Shown: piece after piece, positions 4,229 through 13,525 of the stretch
How positions within the stretch are numbered: the stretch's first letter is position 1
Layout of the letters: each line of letters starts with the position of its first letter
Sequence record: SRR2962707_1636
Length of the DNA: 41,543 nt
Strand: one strand, 5' to 3'
The notes under the pieces: generated by a model
What the model was told of the DNA's origin: nothing
The model's input: the letters and a program-made list of their open reading frames with translations, nothing else
Databases searched by the model: none
Translations under genes and position numbers: made by a program

Positions 4229-4244
4229 TTAACGGGAGATTGAC
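4229..4244. promoter_or_regulatory. Candidate CtrA binding site
   Basis: TTAA-CGGGAGA-TTGAC, one mismatch to TTAA-N7-TTAAC, in the intergenic region upstream of hfaB. Confidence 0.5.
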
Positions 4245-4375
4245 GTGCGAAATCGGGACGGGGCGTGCCGGCACCGGGGCGTTACAGGACGTAAACCATT
4301 TGCATTCCGGCACAGCGTTCCCGAAGGCGCACAAAAAACGGCGGAATTCCGCAATTCTTAATGAGGTATGACCGC

Positions 4376-4391
4376 TGGCACACCGGTTGCA
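4376..4391 (+). promoter_or_regulatory. Sigma54 (-24/-12) promoter of the hfaB-like gene
   Basis: TGGCAC-ACCGG-TTGCA, exact match to TGGCAC-N5-TTGCW, about 100 bp upstream of the start. Confidence 0.75.
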
Positions 4392-4487
4392 CTCCCCTTG
4401 GCAACCAAGCCTCGACGGGCGCGGTGGCAGAATCGAAAAAATTGATCGCCAGCACGACCGTCGAAAGGTGACCTTCAGGAGGCCAAA

Positions 4488-5543
4488 GTGTTTTCAACGG
4501 TTCTGTCCATCGCGACGAAAAAGGGAATGCCCAAGCGGACGCTGGGTGCCCTTGCCATGGCATTCGCACTCACCGGCTGCGTCAGCGCCAATGCGGGTTC
4601 CGACGGGCGCTATGCGGCGCCGATCGGCAATGCCCCGGTCATCAACAATGAAACGCCTTACTCGAGCGCGCTTCGCTGCCTTGCGGGCCATGTGCCCATG
4701 GGCGCGAACACGACGCGCATCGCGGTCGGCAACATCCGCGACTACACCGGCAAGTCGGAAGCCGACGGCACCGGCATGAAGGTCACGCAGGGCGCCTCGC
4801 TGATGGCGATGTCCGCTCTCGGCCGGGCCGGCGTGCCGCTCGTCGAGCGTTACGACACGTCGATCTCCGAACTCGAGATGAAGTACACCAACAACAAGCT
4901 CATCGGCGACGCGGTTGACGGCGAATACCGCAAGATCTACGCGGGCGAAATCCGCGGCTCCGACTACTACCTCGTCGGCGGCATCACCGAGCTGAACTTC
5001 AACATCCAGTCGGGCGGCATCAATGCGGGCTTCGCCGAAGGTGGCGACATGGGCGCGGCGGCCAATGCCTCGGCTTCCAGCTATGTCATGAACATCGGCC
5101 TCGACCTGCGCCTCGTGAACAGCCGCACGCTCGAAGTCGTCGACTACGTTTCCTACCAGAAGCAGATCGTCGGCCGCGAGATCAAGGCCGGTGTGTTCGA
5201 CTTCTTCGGCGGCAACCTGTTCTCGCTCGGCGTCGGTTCGAGCGCGCAGGAGCCGATCCAGCTCGCTGTCCGCGCCGTTGTCGAACGCGCCGTGCTCAAG
5301 CTGCTGGTTCCGCTCTATGGCGTGAACCCCGCCGACTGCGCCCGCTTCCCGGGCAACAAGGACCCGATGGGCGAAATCGACTACCGCCAGGCGAACCCCG
5401 GCGCGAAGGCGACCCCCTCCCACGGCCAGCGCGTCGCCCAGGCGCCCGCGCCGAGCAAGAGCCGTCCTTCGGAAACCGAGCCCTACGCCTACTACTCCGA
5501 GCCGGTCTTCGAATCCGGCAGCCTCCGGGGCGGTTCCTACTGA
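4488..5543 (+). CDS. hfaB: CsgG/HfaB family outer-membrane lipoprotein (holdfast anchor HfaB-like)
   Basis: Lipobox ALTGC; YAAPIGNAPV, RIAVGNIRDYTGK, KVTQGASLMAMSAL, LVERYDTS, GGITELNFNI, LDLRLVNSRTLEVV, YQKQIVGREI and EPIQLAVRAVVERA match Caulobacter-type HfaB as I recall it; GTG start after AGGAGG (alternative ATG 4527). Confidence 0.85.
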   Translation: MFSTVLSIATKKGMPKRTLGALAMAFALTGCVSANAGSDGRYAAPIGNAPVINNETPYSSALRCLAGHVPMGANTTRIAVGNIRDYTGKSEADGTGMKVTQGASLMAMSALGRAGVPLVERYDTSISELEMKYTNNKLIGDAVDGEYRKIYAGEIRGSDYYLVGGITELNFNIQSGGINAGFAEGGDMGAAANASASSYVMNIGLDLRLVNSRTLEVVDYVSYQKQIVGREIKAGVFDFFGGNLFSLGVGSSAQEPIQLAVRAVVERAVLKLLVPLYGVNPADCARFPGNKDPMGEIDYRQANPGAKATPSHGQRVAQAPAPSKSRPSETEPYAYYSEPVFESGSLRGGSY

Positions 5544-5732
5544 CCACCTGAACTTCCATCGAATTGCCGGCGATGTCCGAGAGACAAGTGAGCAAAGACA
5601 TCGCCGGCTCCCACCCTCATTGCGTCCTGGCTGGTCGGCCTCCGGCTGGACCATGAGAGCTGAGGCGGGGCTTGCCCGCCGATCCCGGAACGGAGTTTTT
5701 CAAGTTTCCTTTTTCGTTCCGGACGACCACTT

Positions 5733-5759
5733 GGGAGGGCCTCGTGCCCTCCCCTTTTT
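5733..5759 (+). terminator. Rho-independent terminator after the hfaB 3' region
   Basis: GGGAGGGC-ctcgt-GCCCTCCC followed by CTTTTT. Confidence 0.7.
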
Positions 5760-5762
5760 CGT

Positions 5763-6080
5763 TCAGCCCTCCGCGAGTTTGAGCATCGCGACGCCTGTGA
5801 CGATGAGGGCAATGGCGGAGAGACGAAGCGGAGAGACGCTCTCACCCAACACGACGACACCGAGCACCGCGGCTCCGAGAATGCCGATGCCTGTCCACGC
5901 CGCATAGGCCGTACCGGGGGGCAGCGTCCGCATCGCCTGTGAGAGGAACCACATGGCGACGAGAAGCGCCGCGATGTTGAACGTCACCATTAGCGGCCGC
6001 GTGAAGCCGTCGCTCGCCTTGAGCGTGTAGGCCCAGACGATTTCCGCCGCGCTTGCGATGAGAAGATAGATCCAGGCCAT
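5763..6080 (-). CDS. gdx: SMR family guanidinium exporter (Gdx/SugE)
   Basis: 105 aa, four TM helices; MAWIYL...EIVWA...K..DGF, LPPGTAYAAWTGIG, GE; guanidine-II riboswitch directly upstream. Confidence 0.88.
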   Translation of the reverse strand: MAWIYLLIASAAEIVWAYTLKASDGFTRPLMVTFNIAALLVAMWFLSQAMRTLPPGTAYAAWTGIGILGAAVLGVVVLGESVSPLRLSAIALIVTGVAMLKLAEG

Positions 6081-6100
6081 GCGCCCCTCCTGTCGAAGAA

Positions 6101-6157
6101 GCGAGGCCGTCCTCGCGAACAAGGGGAAGGCCGGAACCTTCCGCAGGGTCGTCCCTG
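6101..6157 (-). ncRNA. Guanidine-II (mini-ykkC) riboswitch
   Basis: Minus strand has two GC-rich hairpins with ACGR tetraloops, CAGGG-ACGA-CCCUG (6144-6157) and GCGAGG-ACGG-CCUCGC (6101-6116), just before the AGGAGG RBS of an SMR gene. Confidence 0.9.
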
Positions 6158-6276
6158 ATTTCGCAATTTATATCAGCTTGGGCGGGAACTTGAAGGCCTT
6201 TCAATCGCTCTGACTCCATCGTCACAACCGAACCGCGCAAGGGGCTGCGCAGCATGACGCGAGGAGATGAAGCGCT

Positions 6277-6777
6277 ATGTCCGCAACTCACACGATAATC
6301 ACGCTTGGCGCAGCGGTTTTCACCGGCATCGCCTCCCACTCCGCCCTTTCCGCCTTCGCCGCCAACGAAGCCACGGAGCCCACGGGCTACTGGCGCACCA
6401 TCGACGACGAAACTCATGAGGCAAAGAGCATCGTCCGCATCACGGAAGAACGCGGCGAGCTCAAGGGCAAGGTCGTCACGCTTCTGAACCGCAAGGGCGA
6501 GGACCCGAACCCCGTCTGCGATGGATGTCCGGGCGACCGCAAGGACCAGCCGATCAAGGGCATGACGATCCTCTGGGGCCTTGAGCGGGACGGCGGCGAA
6601 TGGTCCGGCGGCACCATTCTCGATCCCGAATCCGGCGACACCTACGACGCGAAGCTCGAATTGAAAGAAGGCGGCGAGAAACTCGACGTGCGCGGCTACA
6701 TCGGATTCTCGATGCTCGGCCGTACCCAGACCTGGGAACGGATCGATAAACCGGACCTGAAGAAAAACAGCGGTTGA
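6277..6777 (+). CDS. DUF2147 family secreted protein (copy 1)
   Basis: Signal peptide; PTGYWRTIDD, CDGC, GMTILWGL, WSGGTILDPESG, VRGYIG, GRTQTWER. Confidence 0.88.
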   Translation: MSATHTIITLGAAVFTGIASHSALSAFAANEATEPTGYWRTIDDETHEAKSIVRITEERGELKGKVVTLLNRKGEDPNPVCDGCPGDRKDQPIKGMTILWGLERDGGEWSGGTILDPESGDTYDAKLELKEGGEKLDVRGYIGFSMLGRTQTWERIDKPDLKKNSG

Positions 6778-6814
6778 TACCCTGCGAGCAGGGCCTTGAA
6801 CCTTCCGGCCTTTC

Positions 6815-6847
6815 GATTATATTGACACACATAATGTCAATATAATC
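6815..6847. promoter_or_regulatory. Perfect 13-bp inverted repeat, probable repressor operator
   Basis: GATTATATTGACA-cacataa-TGTCAATATAATC, AT-rich, directly before the RBS of the second DUF2147 gene. Confidence 0.7.
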
Positions 6848-6863
6848 GGGTGGAGGGTATCCC

Positions 6864-7316
6864 ATGACATTCCATAGCTTGAAAACAGCCGCTGCGTGCG
6901 CCGCCGCGACCTTGCTGACCTTGTCTGCGCTCGCCCTGCCGGCCTCGGCGGACGATGCCTCCCCCGCTGGCAAATGGCGGACTTTCGACCCGGACACAGG
7001 CACCCCGAAGACGGTCGTCGAAATCACGGAAACGGACGGCACGCTGACAGGGACCATTGTCGAATTGCTGGACGATGGCGAAACCACCTGCTCGCAATGC
7101 GAAGGCGACAAGAAGAACCAGCCGCTCGTCGGCCTGGCGATCCTCTGGGGCCTGACGCCAGACGGCGACGAATGGTCGGGCGGCACCATCCTCCGCCCCG
7201 CCAACGGCAAGACGGCGGATGCCAGCCTCGAACTGACCGGAGATGGAAGCAAACTCGAAGTCACCGGCTCAAAAGGCTTCATGAGCCGCAGCCAGACCTG
7301 GGAACGGGTGGAGTAA
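6864..7316 (+). CDS. DUF2147 family secreted protein (copy 2)
   Basis: Signal peptide (ALPASA); PAGKWRTFD, CSQC, GLAILWGL, WSGGTIL, RSQTWER; paralog of 6277..6777. Confidence 0.85.
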   Translation: MTFHSLKTAAACAAATLLTLSALALPASADDASPAGKWRTFDPDTGTPKTVVEITETDGTLTGTIVELLDDGETTCSQCEGDKKNQPLVGLAILWGLTPDGDEWSGGTILRPANGKTADASLELTGDGSKLEVTGSKGFMSRSQTWERVE

Positions 7317-7355
7317 ACCTCAACCGGCTACGCTGACGGGCACCCAGCGCACCTG

Positions 7356-7388
7356 AAAAAAAACGGAGAGAGCTTTCGCCCTCTCCGT
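7356..7388 (-). terminator. Rho-independent terminator of the Asn-rich gene
   Basis: Minus strand ACGGAGAGGGC-GAAA-GCUCUCUCCGU followed by a U run. Confidence 0.85.
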
Positions 7389-7449
7389 CTCTTCCGGCAC
7401 TTGTTGCAGGCTGCGGGATGAAGCGGTCGCAGCCTGCAGCATCCCTCGC

Positions 7450-8400
7450 CTAGTACCCCACACCGCCCGAGAAGAAGGCGCCGCCCGTGGCCGCCATCTC
7501 TTCGCCGCGCTCGTTCTTGCGGATGAAAACTTCCGCATAGGCCTGGCGCGTCGAAGCCGGGATTTCGCTGTAGCCATGCTTCTGCTGCGGCACGCAGGCA
7601 AGCATCCCGTTCGAGCCGTGACGCAGTGCCTCGCCGGGACGGCACTCGATGACATAGCCGCCGACATAGTCCGGCGTCGCGTCGCCGCCTTTGCCCGCCA
7701 TGCGGCCAATCGTGGCGACGAGCATGTCGCCCGCGACGCAGTGAAAGAGTTCGACGTCGTCGGCGGGCTCGACTTCGCTAACCTTCGAGCTCATGCGCGC
7801 CGCTTCTTCAAGCCCCTTCGCGCTGACGCAGATCGCCTTGACCGGCTTCACAACCTTCGCCGTGCGCACGACCACGTTGAGCGCACCCATCGGCGCAGCC
7901 TGCGGCGCGGAAACGTAGTAGCTCGAACCGCCACCGCCGAAGCCGCCGCCGCTGCCATTGCCGATGGCCGTGGAGCTGGTGCGGTCGAGAGCGGAAGACG
8001 CGCTGTCCGCCGCCGCGTTCGCATTGGCGATGGCCGATGCGGTCGCCGAAGCATTCGCATTCGAGTTCGCATTGACGTTCACGTGAACGTCGATGTTGTT
8101 GGTATTGTTATTCGTATTGTTGTTCGTGTTGTTATTGGTGTTGTGGTTCTCGTTGTAGTTGTAGTTCTTGTTGTAATTGTAATTCTTGTTGTAGTTCTTG
8201 CCGCCGCCCTTGCCGCCACCGTCGTGGTCGCAGCCGCAATCATGCTTCGGCGGCGGGGGCGCGCATCCGCCGCCGCATCCGCCTGAACCGGCCGCCGCCG
8301 GGGTCGCCCCCGCCAGCGCGTAAATGAAAAGCGCGGCGCCGAACGCCATCGCACTCAGAACCGGCATCCCGCCGGAAATCAAAAACTTCATCTGCTTCAT
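7450..8400 (-). CDS. Secreted Gly/Cys/Asn-rich low-complexity protein, putative amyloid-like holdfast anchor (HfaE-like)
   Basis: 316 aa; GGGAG RBS; signal peptide ending TPAAA; GGCGGGCAPPPPK; NYNKNYNYN..NTNNNTNNN..VNVNANSNANA ladder; C-terminal domain with four Cys; own promoter and terminator. The CDS is well supported; HfaE identity is from recollection only. Confidence 0.7.
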   Translation of the reverse strand: MKQMKFLISGGMPVLSAMAFGAALFIYALAGATPAAAGSGGCGGGCAPPPPKHDCGCDHDGGGKGGGKNYNKNYNYNKNYNYNENHNTNNNTNNNTNNNTNNIDVHVNVNANSNANASATASAIANANAAADSASSALDRTSSTAIGNGSGGGFGGGGSSYYVSAPQAAPMGALNVVVRTAKVVKPVKAICVSAKGLEEAARMSSKVSEVEPADDVELFHCVAGDMLVATIGRMAGKGGDATPDYVGGYVIECRPGEALRHGSNGMLACVPQQKHGYSEIPASTRQAYAEVFIRKNERGEEMAATGGAFFSGGVGY

Positions 8401-8474
8401 CCTGACACTCCCGGCCCATTTGGGCACGTTGGCCTGCGTCGTTTGGAAACCTTCTTGGCTTCCGCCCTCCACGA

Positions 8475-8490
8475 TGCAGGAGCCGTGCCG
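8475..8490 (-). promoter_or_regulatory. Sigma54-type promoter of the Asn-rich gene
   Basis: Minus strand CGGCACG-GCTC-CTGCA (GG-N10-GC); TTAACCA half-site about 35 bp upstream. Confidence 0.6.
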
Positions 8491-8679
8491 GAGAGGTGTT
8501 GTCCCGGCCCAGCGCGCGCCTCATTGGTTAACGTCCCGCCAAAACGCACTTCGGCGGGCCTGCGCCCTGCTCCGTTAACGCTTTCGTTCCCTCTCGCCAC
8601 CGATGCATCCCCTTAAACCCTTGATCCCGCTGCAGGAATGGGGCCGCCCCACCACCCCGGGATCGCCGTCATTAACGGC

Positions 8680-8695
8680 TGGCACGCTTTCTGCT
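8680..8695 (+). promoter_or_regulatory. Sigma54-type promoter of the PAS_5 gene
   Basis: TGGCACG-CTTT-CTGCT (GG-N10-GC), preceded by TTAAC at 8672. Confidence 0.65.
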
Positions 8696-8878
8696 CCCTG
8701 TCGCCTGTCCCCGGCGCCCGGCGCAGACCTCGTATCGGATCGGTACGAACGCCGGGAGCGGGACAGGAATTCGATGAGGCGACCCGAAACGGGACGTTTC
8801 GCAGTGAATGAGTTAGGATTTCCGCCTAGGCATTGGGGGCTCCCCCGCCGGCGGAAAGCACGGCAGGGGATGATGGGT

Positions 8879-9550
8879 ATGAAGCACAAGAACAATCAGG
8901 TTCTGTTCGATTACTGGAACGCGATCCGCGCGGGCCGGCCCGCGCCGCATCGCAGCGAAATCGAGCCGGGCGACATCCGCCGCGTCCTGCCTTACGTGTT
9001 CATTCTGGAGCGCAAAGACCGCGACACCTACCGCTTCCGCCTCGCGGGAACCGGCCTCTGCAGCACCTACGGAATGGAATTTCGCGGCCACAACATGCTC
9101 TCCCTGTGGTCGGACGACTGCGTGGAAACGCTGAAGCAGGCAATGGACGACGTGGCGGTCAACGCGACGATCTCCGTCGTCGAATATACCGCGGCGACGA
9201 ATGACGGCCGCGAAGCCACCTTCGAAATGATCCTGCTGCCGCTCGCTCATGAAGACGGCTCGATGACCCGCGTGCTCGGCGCCGCCGTCCCGATTGACCC
9301 GCTACCCTGGATCGGCGACCGGATGCTCGCCCGCCAGTGGATCGACCGCCTCCGCCGCCTCGACCCCGAGCGGATGCGCGCTCCCGAGCGCGATGCGGAA
9401 TCGGTCGCGCGCCGCATCCTCGCCGAGAAGCCGCCGGTGGCCATCGCCAGCATCACCAGCCACGCAAGCCGCAAGCCGCCGCTCAGGAGCGAGCGTTCCT
9501 ATCTGCGCCTTGTGAAGAACGCGCCCGCCGGCAGAGAAGAGATGGGTTAA
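8879..9550 (+). CDS. PAS_5 (DUF1457) domain protein
   Basis: LFDYWNAIRAGRPAPHRSEIEPGDIRRVLPYVFILE, FRLAGT, FEMILLPL; tail YLRLVK; start chosen at MKH. Confidence 0.88.
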   Translation: MKHKNNQVLFDYWNAIRAGRPAPHRSEIEPGDIRRVLPYVFILERKDRDTYRFRLAGTGLCSTYGMEFRGHNMLSLWSDDCVETLKQAMDDVAVNATISVVEYTAATNDGREATFEMILLPLAHEDGSMTRVLGAAVPIDPLPWIGDRMLARQWIDRLRRLDPERMRAPERDAESVARRILAEKPPVAIASITSHASRKPPLRSERSYLRLVKNAPAGREEMG

Positions 9551-10446
9551 ATTTTACCCAGCCGCGAGAGCCAGTACAAAATCCAGAGCACTCGCCGCCA
9601 CGGCGATTTCAGATACCCGAACTGACTATCGAAATCGTCGATGTCCAGCACCTGCGCTTCGCCCTCGCAGAAACCCTCCACGAAGTCATGCTGCAAACAT
9701 TCGCCGAGGCACTTCTGGAACCTCCCCCGCGGCCGGTTCGGACCGACCGGGGTTAGCATGTATACCGGAATGCCCGCAGGCACCCACAGCATGTTGGCGA
9801 ATTCCGCGCCTCTTATTCCAATTACGCCAAGGGCATTCGAGAAGACTTCGATCTGGCACCCCAGTTCGTGAGCGCCTGGCTCATAGACGATAACGGGGTA
9901 GCCAAGAGCCCTCATACGCCGCCGTGTTTCCGCCAGATTGCGGATATGCCGCCGGGCGCTGCCATATGAAGGACTGTCTGTTCCTCCGTCGAGCTGGTAG
10001 AAATCCGGCATCGGACTGCGATCGAGAAGAAGGATCCGGTCACGGCACTTTGCGGTCGCGTCGCAGGCGCACCGGTTCGGAACCCCGCCCTTCAACAGCG
10101 GAATAACGCGGCTGATCCGTGAACGGAGTTCATCGCGCTGGCTCGGATCGAGCGTGTACTTGTCCCAATGCTCGATATCGACACGGCGGGACGCAGGGAA
10201 CTGCCCGGCGATTTCGCTCTTCTTCAGAATGCGGAAATCAACCCCGAGAGACTGCAAGCCTTCGAGAAGGACTGCGTCCATTACCGGGCCACACGACTCT
10301 ATCAGATATGTCCCGTCTTCATCGCCATGGGCCGCAATATGGTCCATCGCAGGCAGGAAATATCCGAACATGAAGTGCCAGTAGTGCTGCACGGACCCAA
10401 TCATGCTGTGATCTGGCACCAGATGCACCGCGGTGGGCGAGGACAT
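9547..10446 (-). CDS. Glycosyltransferase family 61-like (DUF563) protein
   Basis: HYWHFM near the N-terminus, RRHIRN, QIEVFSNALGVIGIRGAEFANMLW; start 5 nt after the upstream gene's stop. Confidence 0.65.
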   Translation of the reverse strand: MSSPTAVHLVPDHSMIGSVQHYWHFMFGYFLPAMDHIAAHGDEDGTYLIESCGPVMDAVLLEGLQSLGVDFRILKKSEIAGQFPASRRVDIEHWDKYTLDPSQRDELRSRISRVIPLLKGGVPNRCACDATAKCRDRILLLDRSPMPDFYQLDGGTDSPSYGSARRHIRNLAETRRRMRALGYPVIVYEPGAHELGCQIEVFSNALGVIGIRGAEFANMLWVPAGIPVYMLTPVGPNRPRGRFQKCLGECLQHDFVEGFCEGEAQVLDIDDFDSQFGYLKSPWRRVLWILYWLSRLGKI

Positions 10447-10451
10447 GGCGG

Positions 10452-11699
10452 TCAACTGCCGGCCAGCAGCGCTTTCTGCTGCTGCCAAAGCTGCAGAAGG
10501 CGCGTATCGGGCATGTCGAGATCGTCCCAGCTCAACGGCTCGTCTCGTGCAACCGCGCGTCGAAGCACCGGCCGTTCATTTGTATCTTCGACGTCGAGCA
10601 ACCCTTGCGGCACAAGATCGGCGGCATCGGCATCCTGCGCCGACATGATCAGCCCATAGACCTCGTCGCTGCCGATGGCATGCGCGATCCGGTCTCCACG
10701 CGAGAGAGGCCGTTTCGCATGAGCGTAGCAGTCGGTCATGCGCCCATGACGCAGATCAAGCCCGCTTCGTCCGTAAAGCACGCTCATCGCAATCGCTCGT
10801 GGCGTTTCGAAGTGACAAAGATGATAGGGCCTGAAGAAGACACAGTAGGGCGCGCGATTGGTGATCTTGTAGTAGTCGAGATAGTGAGCGCGGAACGGAT
10901 CGTCGCTGCGGGCGACGACGTAAACCCCGCCACCATGCTGGCGCGCGCCGAGAATGTAGTCGACATGCGCCTTGCCGCCATAACTCTCGAAATCAAACAG
11001 GCCGAGGACGTCCTCGACGCGCTCCGCGCACGGCCCCTCCATTCCCGGCACACGCGGCGTAAGGCCCCGCTCGTTCGCGATCAGCGACATTTCGATGTTG
11101 AGCTTCGACCCGTCCGTGTAAGCAAGACACTGCTCGGGGCTGAGCTGGAGCGAAGCTGCGATCTCGACCGACCCTTCCAGCGTCCGGTAGCGGTCGAGAA
11201 ATCCTTTCATGTTCCCGGCCTGAACGAATTCGAAACCCCACATTTCGATTTCATCCATCATGCGTGCAAGCACGCCATGCTGATCGCCCGCATCGCTCGT
11301 CACTACTACGCCCTTTCGGGCGGCGGCATCGCGGAGGAGATAACCGAGCATGGCATCGACTTCGGCGTTCATCAGCACGCAATGCGCACCCTTCTCGATT
11401 GCCGCCATGCAGTAATCGAAGGCAGCGACAATGGAATTCGTCGCTTCAATCAGCACATCGCACGGGAGGGAGGGGTCTTCGAGAGCCGCAAGGCAATCGG
11501 TTGCGACATGTGTCGGCTTGCCATAGAGGCGCGCAGCTTCGCCCGCCGCTGCCTCTGACTTGTCGGCGACAAATGACAGCCGCATTCCCGGCGTCAATCC
11601 AAGTTGGTGAGCGATACCGAGCCCCATGGCCCCGGCTCCGACGAGCCCAACCTGAATCGGTTCGCCCGTCGCTTCTCTACGCTTCAATTCCGCAAACAC
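10452..11699 (-). CDS. NAD(P)-dependent oxidoreductase with C-terminal SAF domain (homoserine dehydrogenase-like, COG4091-type)
   Basis: IQVGLVGAGAMG, MNAEVD, GDQHG, DGSKLNIEM..IAN, RPYHLCHFE, AKRPL..GD..G..VYG, L.RAVARDEPLSWDDL; GTG start at 11699. Confidence 0.85.
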   Translation of the reverse strand: MFAELKRREATGEPIQVGLVGAGAMGLGIAHQLGLTPGMRLSFVADKSEAAAGEAARLYGKPTHVATDCLAALEDPSLPCDVLIEATNSIVAAFDYCMAAIEKGAHCVLMNAEVDAMLGYLLRDAAARKGVVVTSDAGDQHGVLARMMDEIEMWGFEFVQAGNMKGFLDRYRTLEGSVEIAASLQLSPEQCLAYTDGSKLNIEMSLIANERGLTPRVPGMEGPCAERVEDVLGLFDFESYGGKAHVDYILGARQHGGGVYVVARSDDPFRAHYLDYYKITNRAPYCVFFRPYHLCHFETPRAIAMSVLYGRSGLDLRHGRMTDCYAHAKRPLSRGDRIAHAIGSDEVYGLIMSAQDADAADLVPQGLLDVEDTNERPVLRRAVARDEPLSWDDLDMPDTRLLQLWQQQKALLAGS

Positions 11700-11878
11700 T
11701 GTGACTTCGCCCGCCCCCGGCCGGTTTCCCCAGATGCCGGCCGCGCCCTGCCCCGGCCGCAGCGACGATCGAAAGATAACATGGGGAAAAGAATCTCCCC
11801 ACCCAAATGCCATGCGGTCCGAAAGCAAATGGCCCGGCAGAGCCGGGCCATGAACTTGTCTTTTCGCTACCGGAAAAA

Positions 11879-13525
11879 TCAGGCCGCGTGGCCGACCCGG
11901 TCTTCGGCAATCGTGACGTTCTCCGAAGGCAGCGGCGCCTTGCCCAGCATGTCGTCGGAAATCTTCTCCGCGATCATGATCGTCGGCGCATTGGTATTGC
12001 CGCCGACAAGCGTCGGCATCACGGAGGCATCGACGACGCGCAATCCCTGCAACCCGTGGACGCGGCACTTCGCATCGACGACCGCCATCGGGTCTGTGCC
12101 CATCTTCGCCGTGCCGACCGGGTGATAGATCGTCTCCGCCGTCTCGCGAATCCAGGCGTCGATCTCCGCATCGGACTGGACACCTGCGCCCGGCCAGAAT
12201 TCCGGTCCGCGATAGGCATCCATCGCACGCTGCGAAAGAATCTCGCGCACCATGCGCACGCCGTCGCGCATCACCTTGCGGTCGTACTCCGCTTCCAGGT
12301 AGTTCGGCTGGATCAGCGCATGCTCGGCCGGATTGGTCGACTTCAGTGCGATGAAGCCGCGGCTTTCCGGACGAAGCTGACAGATATGCACGGTGAAGCC
12401 ATGCCTGTCGGACTTCACGCGCGCATGATCGCGCATCATCGCCGCCACGAAGTGAAGTTGAATGTCCGGCACTTCGAGTTCCGGCCGCGTTTTCAGGAAC
12501 GCGCCGCTCTCAAGTCCGTTCGAGGTCGCAATGCCCGTCTTGAAGAAGGTGTATTGCATGCCGCTCATCAGCTGCTTGAGCGGGTTGGAAACCGTGCTGT
12601 GAAGGGTGATCGGCTGCGTGCATTCGTTGATGACGACACAGTCCAGATGGTCCTGCAGGTTCTGGCCGACGCCCGGCAGGTCGGCGACGACATCGAGGCC
12701 GAACTTCTTGAGATATTCGCCCTTGCCGATGCCCGACAGCATCAGGATTTGCGGCGTATTGACCGCGCCGCCGGAGACGACGATCTCCTTGCCCGCGCGG
12801 GCGACTTTCGTTTCGCCCTTCTGCGTATATTCAACACCGACGGCCTTTTTGCCCTCGAAGAGGATGCGCGATGTGAGCGCCTCGACTTCGATGGTGAGGT
12901 TCGGCCGGTTCAGCGCCGGAACGAGATAGCCCTTGGCCGCGCTGCAGCGCTGGCCGTCCTTGATGGTGAGCTGGTAGGGGCCGACGCCCTCCTGCTGCGG
13001 GCCGTTGAAGTCTTCCGTATAAGGATGACCGGCCTGCTGGCCCGCTTCCACGAAGGACTCGAACAGCACATTCGTCTTGCGCGGGTTGCTGACGCCAAGC
13101 GGACCCTCGCCGCCATGAAAGGCGCTGTTGCCGTTCTCATTGCCTTCCGAGCGCCGGAAATATGGCAGCACATCCGAGAAACCCCAGCCTTCGAGGCCGA
13201 GCTGACGCCACATGTCGTAGTCGCGCGCATGGCCGCGAATGTAGATCATGCCGTTGATGGAGGACGACCCGCCAAGCACCTTGCCGCGCGGCCAGTAGAG
13301 CTTGCGATTGTTCAGGAAGGGCTGCCCTTCCGTGTCGTAGCACCAGTTGGCGAGGTCCGTGCCGATCAGTTTGCCGACGCCCGCCGGCATATGGATCATG
13401 AAGTTCGAATCCTTCGATCCCGCCTCAAGAAGCAGAACCTTGTTGGATGGATTCTCCGACAGACGGTTGGCGAGCACGCATCCCGCGCTGCCTGCACCAA
13501 TAATGATGTAGTCGAAATCGCTCAT
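11879..13525 (-). CDS. GMC family FAD oxidoreductase (choline/alcohol dehydrogenase-like)
   Basis: FDYIIIGAGSAGCVLANRLSE, RGKVLGGSSSINGMIYIRG, VGQNLQDH, IYHPVGTAKMG, GNTNAPTIMIAEK. Confidence 0.93.
   Translation of the reverse strand: MSDFDYIIIGAGSAGCVLANRLSENPSNKVLLLEAGSKDSNFMIHMPAGVGKLIGTDLANWCYDTEGQPFLNNRKLYWPRGKVLGGSSSINGMIYIRGHARDYDMWRQLGLEGWGFSDVLPYFRRSEGNENGNSAFHGGEGPLGVSNPRKTNVLFESFVEAGQQAGHPYTEDFNGPQQEGVGPYQLTIKDGQRCSAAKGYLVPALNRPNLTIEVEALTSRILFEGKKAVGVEYTQKGETKVARAGKEIVVSGGAVNTPQILMLSGIGKGEYLKKFGLDVVADLPGVGQNLQDHLDCVVINECTQPITLHSTVSNPLKQLMSGMQYTFFKTGIATSNGLESGAFLKTRPELEVPDIQLHFVAAMMRDHARVKSDRHGFTVHICQLRPESRGFIALKSTNPAEHALIQPNYLEAEYDRKVMRDGVRMVREILSQRAMDAYRGPEFWPGAGVQSDAEIDAWIRETAETIYHPVGTAKMGTDPMAVVDAKCRVHGLQGLRVVDASVMPTLVGGNTNAPTIMIAEKISDDMLGKAPLPSENVTIAEDRVGHAA

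Follow-up and report, generated by a model that had tools for sequence, protein, structure and literature searches.

In a 41,543-nucleotide (nt) stretch of Parvibaculum DNA (record SRR2962707_1636; by the window we mean this whole stretch), the locus at 4229..9550 carries a reduced, two-gene version of the Hfa anchor. One gene, hfaB, encodes a CsgG-family outer-membrane lipoprotein, and the other, convergent with it, encodes a secreted asparagine-rich protein that by homology and position is a divergent HfaE orthologue, and not a canonical member because it keeps only the third of the published HfaE motifs. We consider the orthology of both genes very probable. Both proteins belong to described families, and it is the two-gene version of the anchor that is new. 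An initial annotation of this DNA had proposed an orphan HfaB with a new cargo. Its larger proposal, a reduced, conserved HfaB-plus-partner module, probably under shared sigma-54 control, in a host outside the Caulobacterales, holds up. The two labels had to be given up: HfaE is an HfaB-dependent anchor protein already described in the available text of a preprint (10.1101/2022.07.20.500906), so HfaB has a partner in a known pairing and is no orphan, and the domain profile, the PF26654 annotation of relatives, four cysteines and the chromosomal slot all point to a divergent HfaE in place of the supposed new cargo. The features in question are:

4376..4390, + strand: -24/-12 motif before hfaB, an exact TGGCAC-N5-TTGC
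4488..5543, + strand: hfaB, CsgG-family outer-membrane lipoprotein, 351 amino acids (aa), GTG start
7450..8400, - strand: putative divergent hfaE orthologue (the Asn-rich protein), 316 aa
7453..7902, - strand: HfaE-family C-terminal beta domain, residues 167-316, with C191, C221, C253 and C269 invariant and a terminal GGVG
8047..8196, - strand: Asn ladder, residues 69-118, 26 Asn in 50 residues
8476..8490, - strand: -24/-12-type motif before hfaE, 2 mismatches, alone not above chance

HfaB and a divergent HfaE

The open reading frame (ORF) at 4488-5543, which the initial annotation had called HfaB/CsgG-like, is a true HfaB on profile evidence: it scores 391.9 bits against NCBIfam holdfast_HfaB NF037935, over the equivalog cut-off of 300, and 38 bits against the CsgG equivalog NF011731, under the cut-off of 505. 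The protein also matches Pfam CsgG (PF03783, 7.6e-19) and the solved E. coli CsgG chains (E 2e-9), and the nearest HfaB, from a Parvibaculum genome, is 97% identical. There is a lipobox, LTGC at 4569-4580 with its cysteine at C31, and L[AT]GC was found across 55 hfaB loci. The ratio of nonsynonymous to synonymous substitution rates (dN/dS) is 0.10-0.21 over the whole of hfaB in 7/7 pairs with relatives and 0.07-0.29 for hfaE against 7 relatives, values that indicate purifying selection and resemble those of neighbour genes. The C-terminal tail of HfaB (window 5340-5543) closes with a PY-x-YY...LRG motif that is conserved across the Parvibaculales loci compared. Loci L154 (G001:C34) and L150-L153 hold a further HfaB/CsgG paralogue that is distantly related (150-234 bits) and in some cases has an OmpA-like C-terminus; it adjoins unnamed secreted proteins, and 6/73 genomes of the order have a second copy.

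The Asn-rich protein begins with what looks by eye like a signal peptide and continues with a Cys/Pro-rich stretch, the Asn ladder, an Ala/Gly linker and a conserved C-terminal domain, in which every one of 132 aligned rows has the same four cysteines and one glutamate. Our HfaE profile covers this C-terminal domain only, from the window protein and 16 Parvibaculum and Tepidicaulis relatives, and it retrieves 137 proteins at E<=1e-3 among 1.84 billion. All three published HfaE motifs, at <=1 mismatch, are present in 48 of the 129 newly retrieved proteins, and one clusters with Asticcacaulis. Comparison by hhalign with the HfaE of two loci of the hfaA/hfaB/hfaD type gave 97.9% and 95.4%. Precomputed annotation assigns PF26654 to 38/39 close relatives and to 120/120 of those listed among 1198 Caulobacterales-type HfaE matches, evidence that concerns relatives and canonical HfaE and not the window protein itself. 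Identity between the window protein and canonical HfaE is about 28% in the C-terminal domain. The HfaE motifs given in the available preprint text are PHPASQV, CNERSLLR and DGGVG (10.1101/2022.07.20.500906). In the window protein the first is lost (best match 4 mismatches; the aligned position reads EEAARMS), as is the second (best match 5 mismatches), and the third is kept as SGGVG with 1 mismatch.

Position points the same way as homology. In genomes G142 and G312, where hfaA, hfaB and hfaD are all over cut-off, a rhomboid gene is followed by hfaA, hfaB and hfaD, then by convergent hfaE and a PAS_5 gene; the window's hfaE fills the same slot, between hfa genes downstream of rhomboid and PAS_5, as in L144 and L145. 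The local Pfam and NCBIfam libraries held no family match for the Asn-rich protein, which had no PF07012 (curlin repeat) match either; a search of the ESM Atlas gave no usable match, and a PDB sequence search with the 132-row domain profile gave 0 matches. AlphaFold predicts a confident beta domain (predicted local distance difference test, pLDDT, 92-97 over residues 181-270) and an unstructured N-terminal half. A Foldseek search with the HfaE model found no match at E<=0.001, and the best hit of a VIA-align search has Z 3.7; we assign no fold and claim no new one.

Distribution of hfaB and hfaE, and searches for hfaA, hfaD and hfs genes

As initially annotated, there is no hfaA, hfaD or csg gene beside hfaB, none being detected in a Pfam scan of the locus genes. 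Beyond the locus, absence of hfaA, hfaD, hfs and csg genes was counted in the genomes of relatives, with an order sample of 73 Parvibaculales genomes and a class sample consisting of an even set of 301 Alphaproteobacteria. HfaB occurs in 68/73 Parvibaculales (65 over cut-off) and an HfaE-like protein, in single copy, also in 68/73; 67/73 have both, which confirms that the two genes co-occur in relatives. All same-contig pairs are convergent and 1-10 kb apart (59/59), and 8 pairs lie on separate contigs. The class sample contains 9/301 genomes with HfaB over cut-off, and these are exactly the 9 with HfaE, for which no more than 7 candidates were scored in any genome; HfaA is over cut-off in exactly 6 of the 9, the non-Parvibaculales ones. 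Named genomic loci matched belong to Parvibaculum, Tepidicaulis or closely allied bins, except for a single contig of 897 bases that is recorded under a different phylum.

Within the order, HfaA was found in 3/73 genomes, all Tepidicaulis, and HfaD over cut-off in 0/73, with a weak tandem HfaD-like pair in 3/73 (Tepidicaulis). When profiles were built anew from HfaA and the tandem HfaD-like genes of Tepidicaulis, they matched only the same 3/73. Given these low counts of hfaA and HfaD-like genes, HfaB in these relatives is not explained by a complete hfaABD at another place. The tandem genes (L046:1459-2963 and L080:1492-2983) encode two secreted, half-size (about 215 aa) proteins with weak NF037936 matches; they lie far from the hfa locus and occur only in the three genomes that retain hfaA.

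Holdfast synthesis genes were sought with narrow queries. HfsF matched in 0/73 Parvibaculales and in none of four other genomes with hfa genes, the positive control being G312; HfsA was not found in 4/4 genomes tested. The Wza genes of relatives are 30-35% or less identical to HfsD. By these searches, hfa without an hfs locus extends beyond the Parvibaculales. The alphaproteobacterial loci L146-L149 (G228, G138, G255, G077) carry hfaA-hfaB and hfaE, placed in the hfa slot or derived from it; hfaD is short or lacking there, and HfsF gave no match. Loci L159, L160 and L161 share a Wza/Wzy polysaccharide cluster beside pcm, with deacetylase and Acetyltransf_6 genes (tolC and DUF2497 in L159). This cluster is a candidate sugar partner of HfaB.

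HfaE and HfaA are stated, in the available preprint text, to occur in Caulobacterales only (10.1101/2022.07.20.500906). The HfaE-like protein in 68/73 Parvibaculales and HfaA in Tepidicaulis contradict that statement. Most Rhizobiales are reported to be without hfa genes (10.1101/085225). In the literature searched we found no account of Parvibaculales hfa genes, of curlin export by HfaB or of how Parvibaculum attaches, and the one paper that pairs Parvibaculum with holdfast was unrelated; the hfa homologue dataset of 10.1101/085225 may name Parvibaculum.

Conserved -24/-12 promoter motifs

The -24/-12 (sigma-54-type) consensus is TGGCAC-N5-TTGC, and the initial annotation had placed such motifs on both genes. 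Before hfaB the claim stands: the site, whose start lies 112 nt from the hfaB start, is the only exact match among the window's 38 matches at <=2 mismatches (43.4 expected). The hfaE site taken alone is at chance level, yet it is conserved among relatives. TGGCAY-N5-TTGC lies upstream of hfaB in 55/55 loci with an intact 5' end, after 8/63 loci were dropped (2 truncated, 6 without hfaB in the DNA). Upstream of hfaE, at a distance of 70-93 nt, 61/61 loci have a relaxed motif against a background of 2.2%, where the motif was relaxed after data inspection, the loci are related, and 2/63 were dropped. These patterns make shared sigma-54 co-regulation of hfaB and hfaE likely. Three poly(A) runs contained 0 reads, which speaks neither for nor against expression. 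A scan of G002 with the strict pattern gave 2 matches, one of them hfaB, versus 3 in the control, and pointed to no further cargo. A third motif precedes the next gene, divergently from hfaE:

8680..8694, + strand: -24/-12-type motif before PAS_5, 1 mismatch, conserved in relatives

In Tepidicaulis the same motif precedes hfaA-hfaB, with hfaA lying between the conserved promoter and hfaB; elsewhere, therefore, hfaA appears to have been deleted from that position. The Caulobacter hfaA promoter is reportedly under sigma-54 control. In 12 loci (L092-L110) the hfaA position, between the sigma-54 motif and hfaB, is taken by a conserved ORF of 65-73 aa with a signal-peptide-like start and no detectable similarity to HfaA (E>0.5). 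It is a candidate remnant or replacement small cargo.

The asparagine ladder

The initial annotation had drawn attention to a secreted protein with an Asn ladder at 7450-8400, and this description was accurate: besides the signal-peptide-like start, 17/25 residues of one alternating face of the ladder are Asn. Beside canonical HfaE, the ladder reads as an expansion of that family's short N-x-N strand. We measured it as the Asn count in the best 30-residue stretch of each protein. The median is 18 in hfaA-less loci (n=58), with 57/58 at 12 or more, as compared with 11 at most in hfaA-bearing loci (n=8) and a median of 5 in canonical HfaE (n=87). In an HfaB tree of 43 hand-chosen rows, with an unreliable root and long branches, the hfaA-bearing rows all fall on one side of a branch (88/90), so that ladder expansion versus hfaA loss amounts to one contrast.

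Curlin genes without csgG in relatives

Curlin repeats exceed the Pfam cut-off in 25/73 Parvibaculales, including G002, the window's nearest relative. Eleven 16-kb loci around them were examined:

L170:6980-8663, L171:7523-9228 and L172-L180: curlin blocks in relatives, csgB-like/csgA-like/csgH

The block, with csgB-like and csgA-like genes diverging and csgH, is present in 10/11 of these loci, one being degenerate, and its GC content is like that of its flanks. CsgH is over cut-off in 3/3 tested, and the curlins fall under the enterobacterial CsgA/CsgB cut-offs. Within these 11 loci we found no HfaB/CsgG match near the curlin genes and no sigma-54-type motif on them. In each of the 25 curlin-bearing genomes PF03783 matches once, at hfaB; a second CsgG-family gene occurs in 6 genomes, none of which has a curlin match. 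CsgF was found in 0/7 curlin-bearing genomes and in 0/10 searched overall (8 Parvibaculum-group and 2 others). Many Alphaproteobacteria have curlin subunits only, and alternative proteins must take the other Csg jobs, according to PMC3521004. Maricaulis maris, for one, appears in Table S1 of that paper as having csgA/B and csgH and lacking csgG. Curlins are a second candidate cargo of HfaB in a Parvibaculum subclade.

Neighbouring genes

Between and beside hfaB and hfaE, Pfam identifies DsbA-like, SMR, two DUF2147 and PAS_5 genes:

5763..7316, no strand assigned: variable passenger genes in the hfaB–hfaE gap, an SMR transporter and two DUF2147 (Pfam)
8861..9550, + strand: PAS_5 gene, MopJ-like, under the MopJ cut-off (Pfam/NCBIfam); the longest ORF begins at 8603

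SMR and DUF2147 were ruled out as module members, since they are present in only 23/55 and 21/55 of the hfaB–hfaE gaps of relatives. The PAS_5 gene, which also adjoins hfaE in the hfaABD loci L144, L145 and L147, looks like a conserved neighbour that marks the hfa slot and is only a candidate for membership. Between PAS_5 and a GMC gene, window 9547-11900 holds glycosyltransferase-61 and DRL/SAF oxidoreductase genes, probably a recent insertion because they are found in only 2/42 related loci. A contig from run X1, which may not be an independent run, spans all 8.3 kb with 121 differences; the gene order is therefore no assembly artefact.

Discussion

We somewhat favour the interpretation that this locus encodes a minimal surface anchor under sigma-54 control: a ring of HfaB would export or position HfaE, which would self-polymerise through its ladder. 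It would descend from an ancestral alphaproteobacterial hfa locus by loss of hfaA and hfaD. Sigma-54 would switch on hfaB and hfaE together, likely at the transition from motile to attached cells, and the HfaB lipoprotein would assemble in the outer membrane as a ring like that of CsgG. HfaE would be exported by Sec, and HfaB would then either pass it to the surface or position it there. On the surface HfaE would self-polymerise, with cross-beta stacking of the enlarged Asn ladder standing in for the lost HfaA/HfaD fibre, and its disulphide-bonded C-terminal domain might bind the cell surface, polysaccharide or substrate. The outcome would be a minimal surface anchor for attachment. Of these steps, we infer both export through HfaB and amyloid formation by HfaE, and the polar adhesion put forward in the initial annotation stays a proposal. 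Caulobacter HfaE makes polymers resistant to sodium dodecyl sulphate (SDS) without HfaA, HfaB or HfaD, according to the available preprint text (10.1101/2022.07.20.500906), and cryo-tomography places HfaB at the outer membrane, its pore role being only inferred in the text available (PMC6707917). P. lavamentivorans depends on a solid surface to grow on surfactants, where it is believed to form a biofilm (PMC3368416). The pattern of gene retention suggests that hfaB and hfaE are the core of a system older than the holdfast.

Several points weigh against this interpretation. CsgG-type pores are narrow, and a compact, Cys-linked C-terminal domain would be awkward for one. With two of three HfaE motifs lost, the function may have shifted. 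The entire neighbourhood is syntenic among relatives, flanking genes equally, and the hfaB–hfaE linkage alone therefore proves little. The absence counts come from genomes that are mostly incomplete metagenome-assembled genomes (MAGs), with searches that passed a loose first filter. The ladder does not follow hfaA loss strictly, since canonical HfaE reaches 17 Asn per best 30 residues and L097 is an hfaA-less locus without a ladder; ladder expansion as compensation for hfaA loss is suggestive, a single phylogenetic contrast. AlphaFold leaves the ladder unfolded (pLDDT under 50), and modelling it alone with 36 rows was uninformative (pLDDT 44). The preprint text available does not describe passage of HfaE through the HfaB pore, and it states that polar localisation of Caulobacter HfaE requires HfaA, HfaD, HfaB and HfsDAB (10.1101/2022.07.20.500906). 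Most of these partners (HfaA, HfaD, Hfs) were not found in Parvibaculales with the queries used, and so Parvibaculum HfaE must be placed differently.

It is also conceivable, though in our judgment rather unlikely, that HfaE is no cargo at all and is instead the standing partner of HfaB, a periplasmic or pore-associated accessory or a sugar-binding adaptor, the pair tethering to the outer membrane a Wzy-type polysaccharide other than holdfast, with HfaA and HfaD as dispensable add-ons. The perfect co-occurrence of hfaB and hfaE in the class sample, while hfaA and hfaD come and go, would fit, as would the Wza/Wzy cluster beside pcm shared by three Parvibaculales genomes (deacetylase 3/3, HfsK-type GNAT genes 2/3). 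In Caulobacter, moreover, a triple mutant of hfaA, hfaD and hfaE is less affected than an hfaB mutant, and direct contact between HfaB and polysaccharide is proposed by the authors (10.1101/2022.07.20.500906). But the triple-mutant result also means that HfaE is not essential to this extra role of HfaB, an expanding Asn ladder has no obvious use in an accessory, and the fold searches, inconclusive as they are, gave no match to a known lectin or accessory.

Otherwise the main reason to keep HfaB might be its use as a pore for substrates other than HfaE, above all the orphan curlins, with HfaE working independently of it. The curlin-bearing genomes, whose one PF03783 match lies at hfaB and which have csgH and no detected CsgF in those tested, lend themselves to this idea, as does the HfaB-independent polymerisation of Caulobacter HfaE noted above. 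However, 43/68 hfaB-bearing genomes have no curlin match, so curlins cannot explain the order-wide retention of hfaB, and in the 11 loci scanned no sigma-54-type motif accompanies the curlin genes; we think it improbable. Least probable of all, to our mind, is that the hfa locus is decaying and has left the two genes as relics, side by side through ancestral synteny only and each now with a role unrelated to adhesion. One could cite for it the equal synteny of the flanking genes, the disappearance of hfaA with an unrelated-looking ORF at its place in 12 loci, and the hfs genes not found with our queries, but the low dN/dS across both genes, the intact single copies in 68/73 genomes and promoters conserved in every scored locus all argue against decay.

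To return to the minimal anchor that we favour, in the Parvibaculum subclade with csgG-less curlins the HfaB pore may also export curlins. We entertain, tentatively and with some doubt, the broader possibility that HfaB predates the holdfast as a general type VIII pore, one which in Parvibaculum exports a ladder-expanded HfaE replacing the HfaA/HfaD fibre and serves as the missing CsgG for csgAB-csgH curlins, in effect a hybrid Hfa-curli system. If true, this would be one answer to how csgG-less alphaproteobacterial curlins exit the cell, a question that becomes testable here with HfaB as the sole CsgG-family gene in 25/25 curlin-bearing genomes. Parvibaculum, a genus of common surfactant and hydrocarbon degraders, offers a natural background that lacks hfaA and hfaD, apparently lacks hfs, and keeps hfaB and hfaE under selection. 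The role of HfaB beyond HfaA/HfaD export, an open question, becomes testable in this group, and the locus is a natural minimal system in which to ask what HfaB exports.

Comparison with known systems

With curli and the type VIII pathway (CsgG, CsgA, CsgB, CsgE, CsgF, and the alphaproteobacterial csgAB-csgH variant) the window shares a CsgG-family pore, but that pore is of HfaB type and the Asn-rich protein has no curlin repeat match. Relatives do have curlin-repeat genes, and csgH where examined, but these are unlinked to the pore and confined to a minority of genomes, and no csgF was found. The HfaA-HfaB-HfaD-HfaE anchor of Caulobacter crescentus and Hirschia baltica is another close system. 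It differs in that hfaA and hfaD are not at the window locus, nor found in 70/73 genomes of the order, that hfsF and hfsA were not found in relatives with the queries used, and that the present host lies outside the Caulobacterales. Relative to CC_2639 and Hbal_0649, the window HfaE has a ladder several times longer, EEAARMS in place of PHPASQV, and no CNERSLLR. What the two have in common is a true HfaB, an HfaE homologue of the same architecture and a chromosomal slot beside rhomboid and a mopJ-like PAS gene, and the HfaE proteins themselves share the position, the signal peptide, the Cys/Pro stretch, the N-x-N strand, the Gly linker and the C-terminal domain with its four invariant cysteines and GGVG end.

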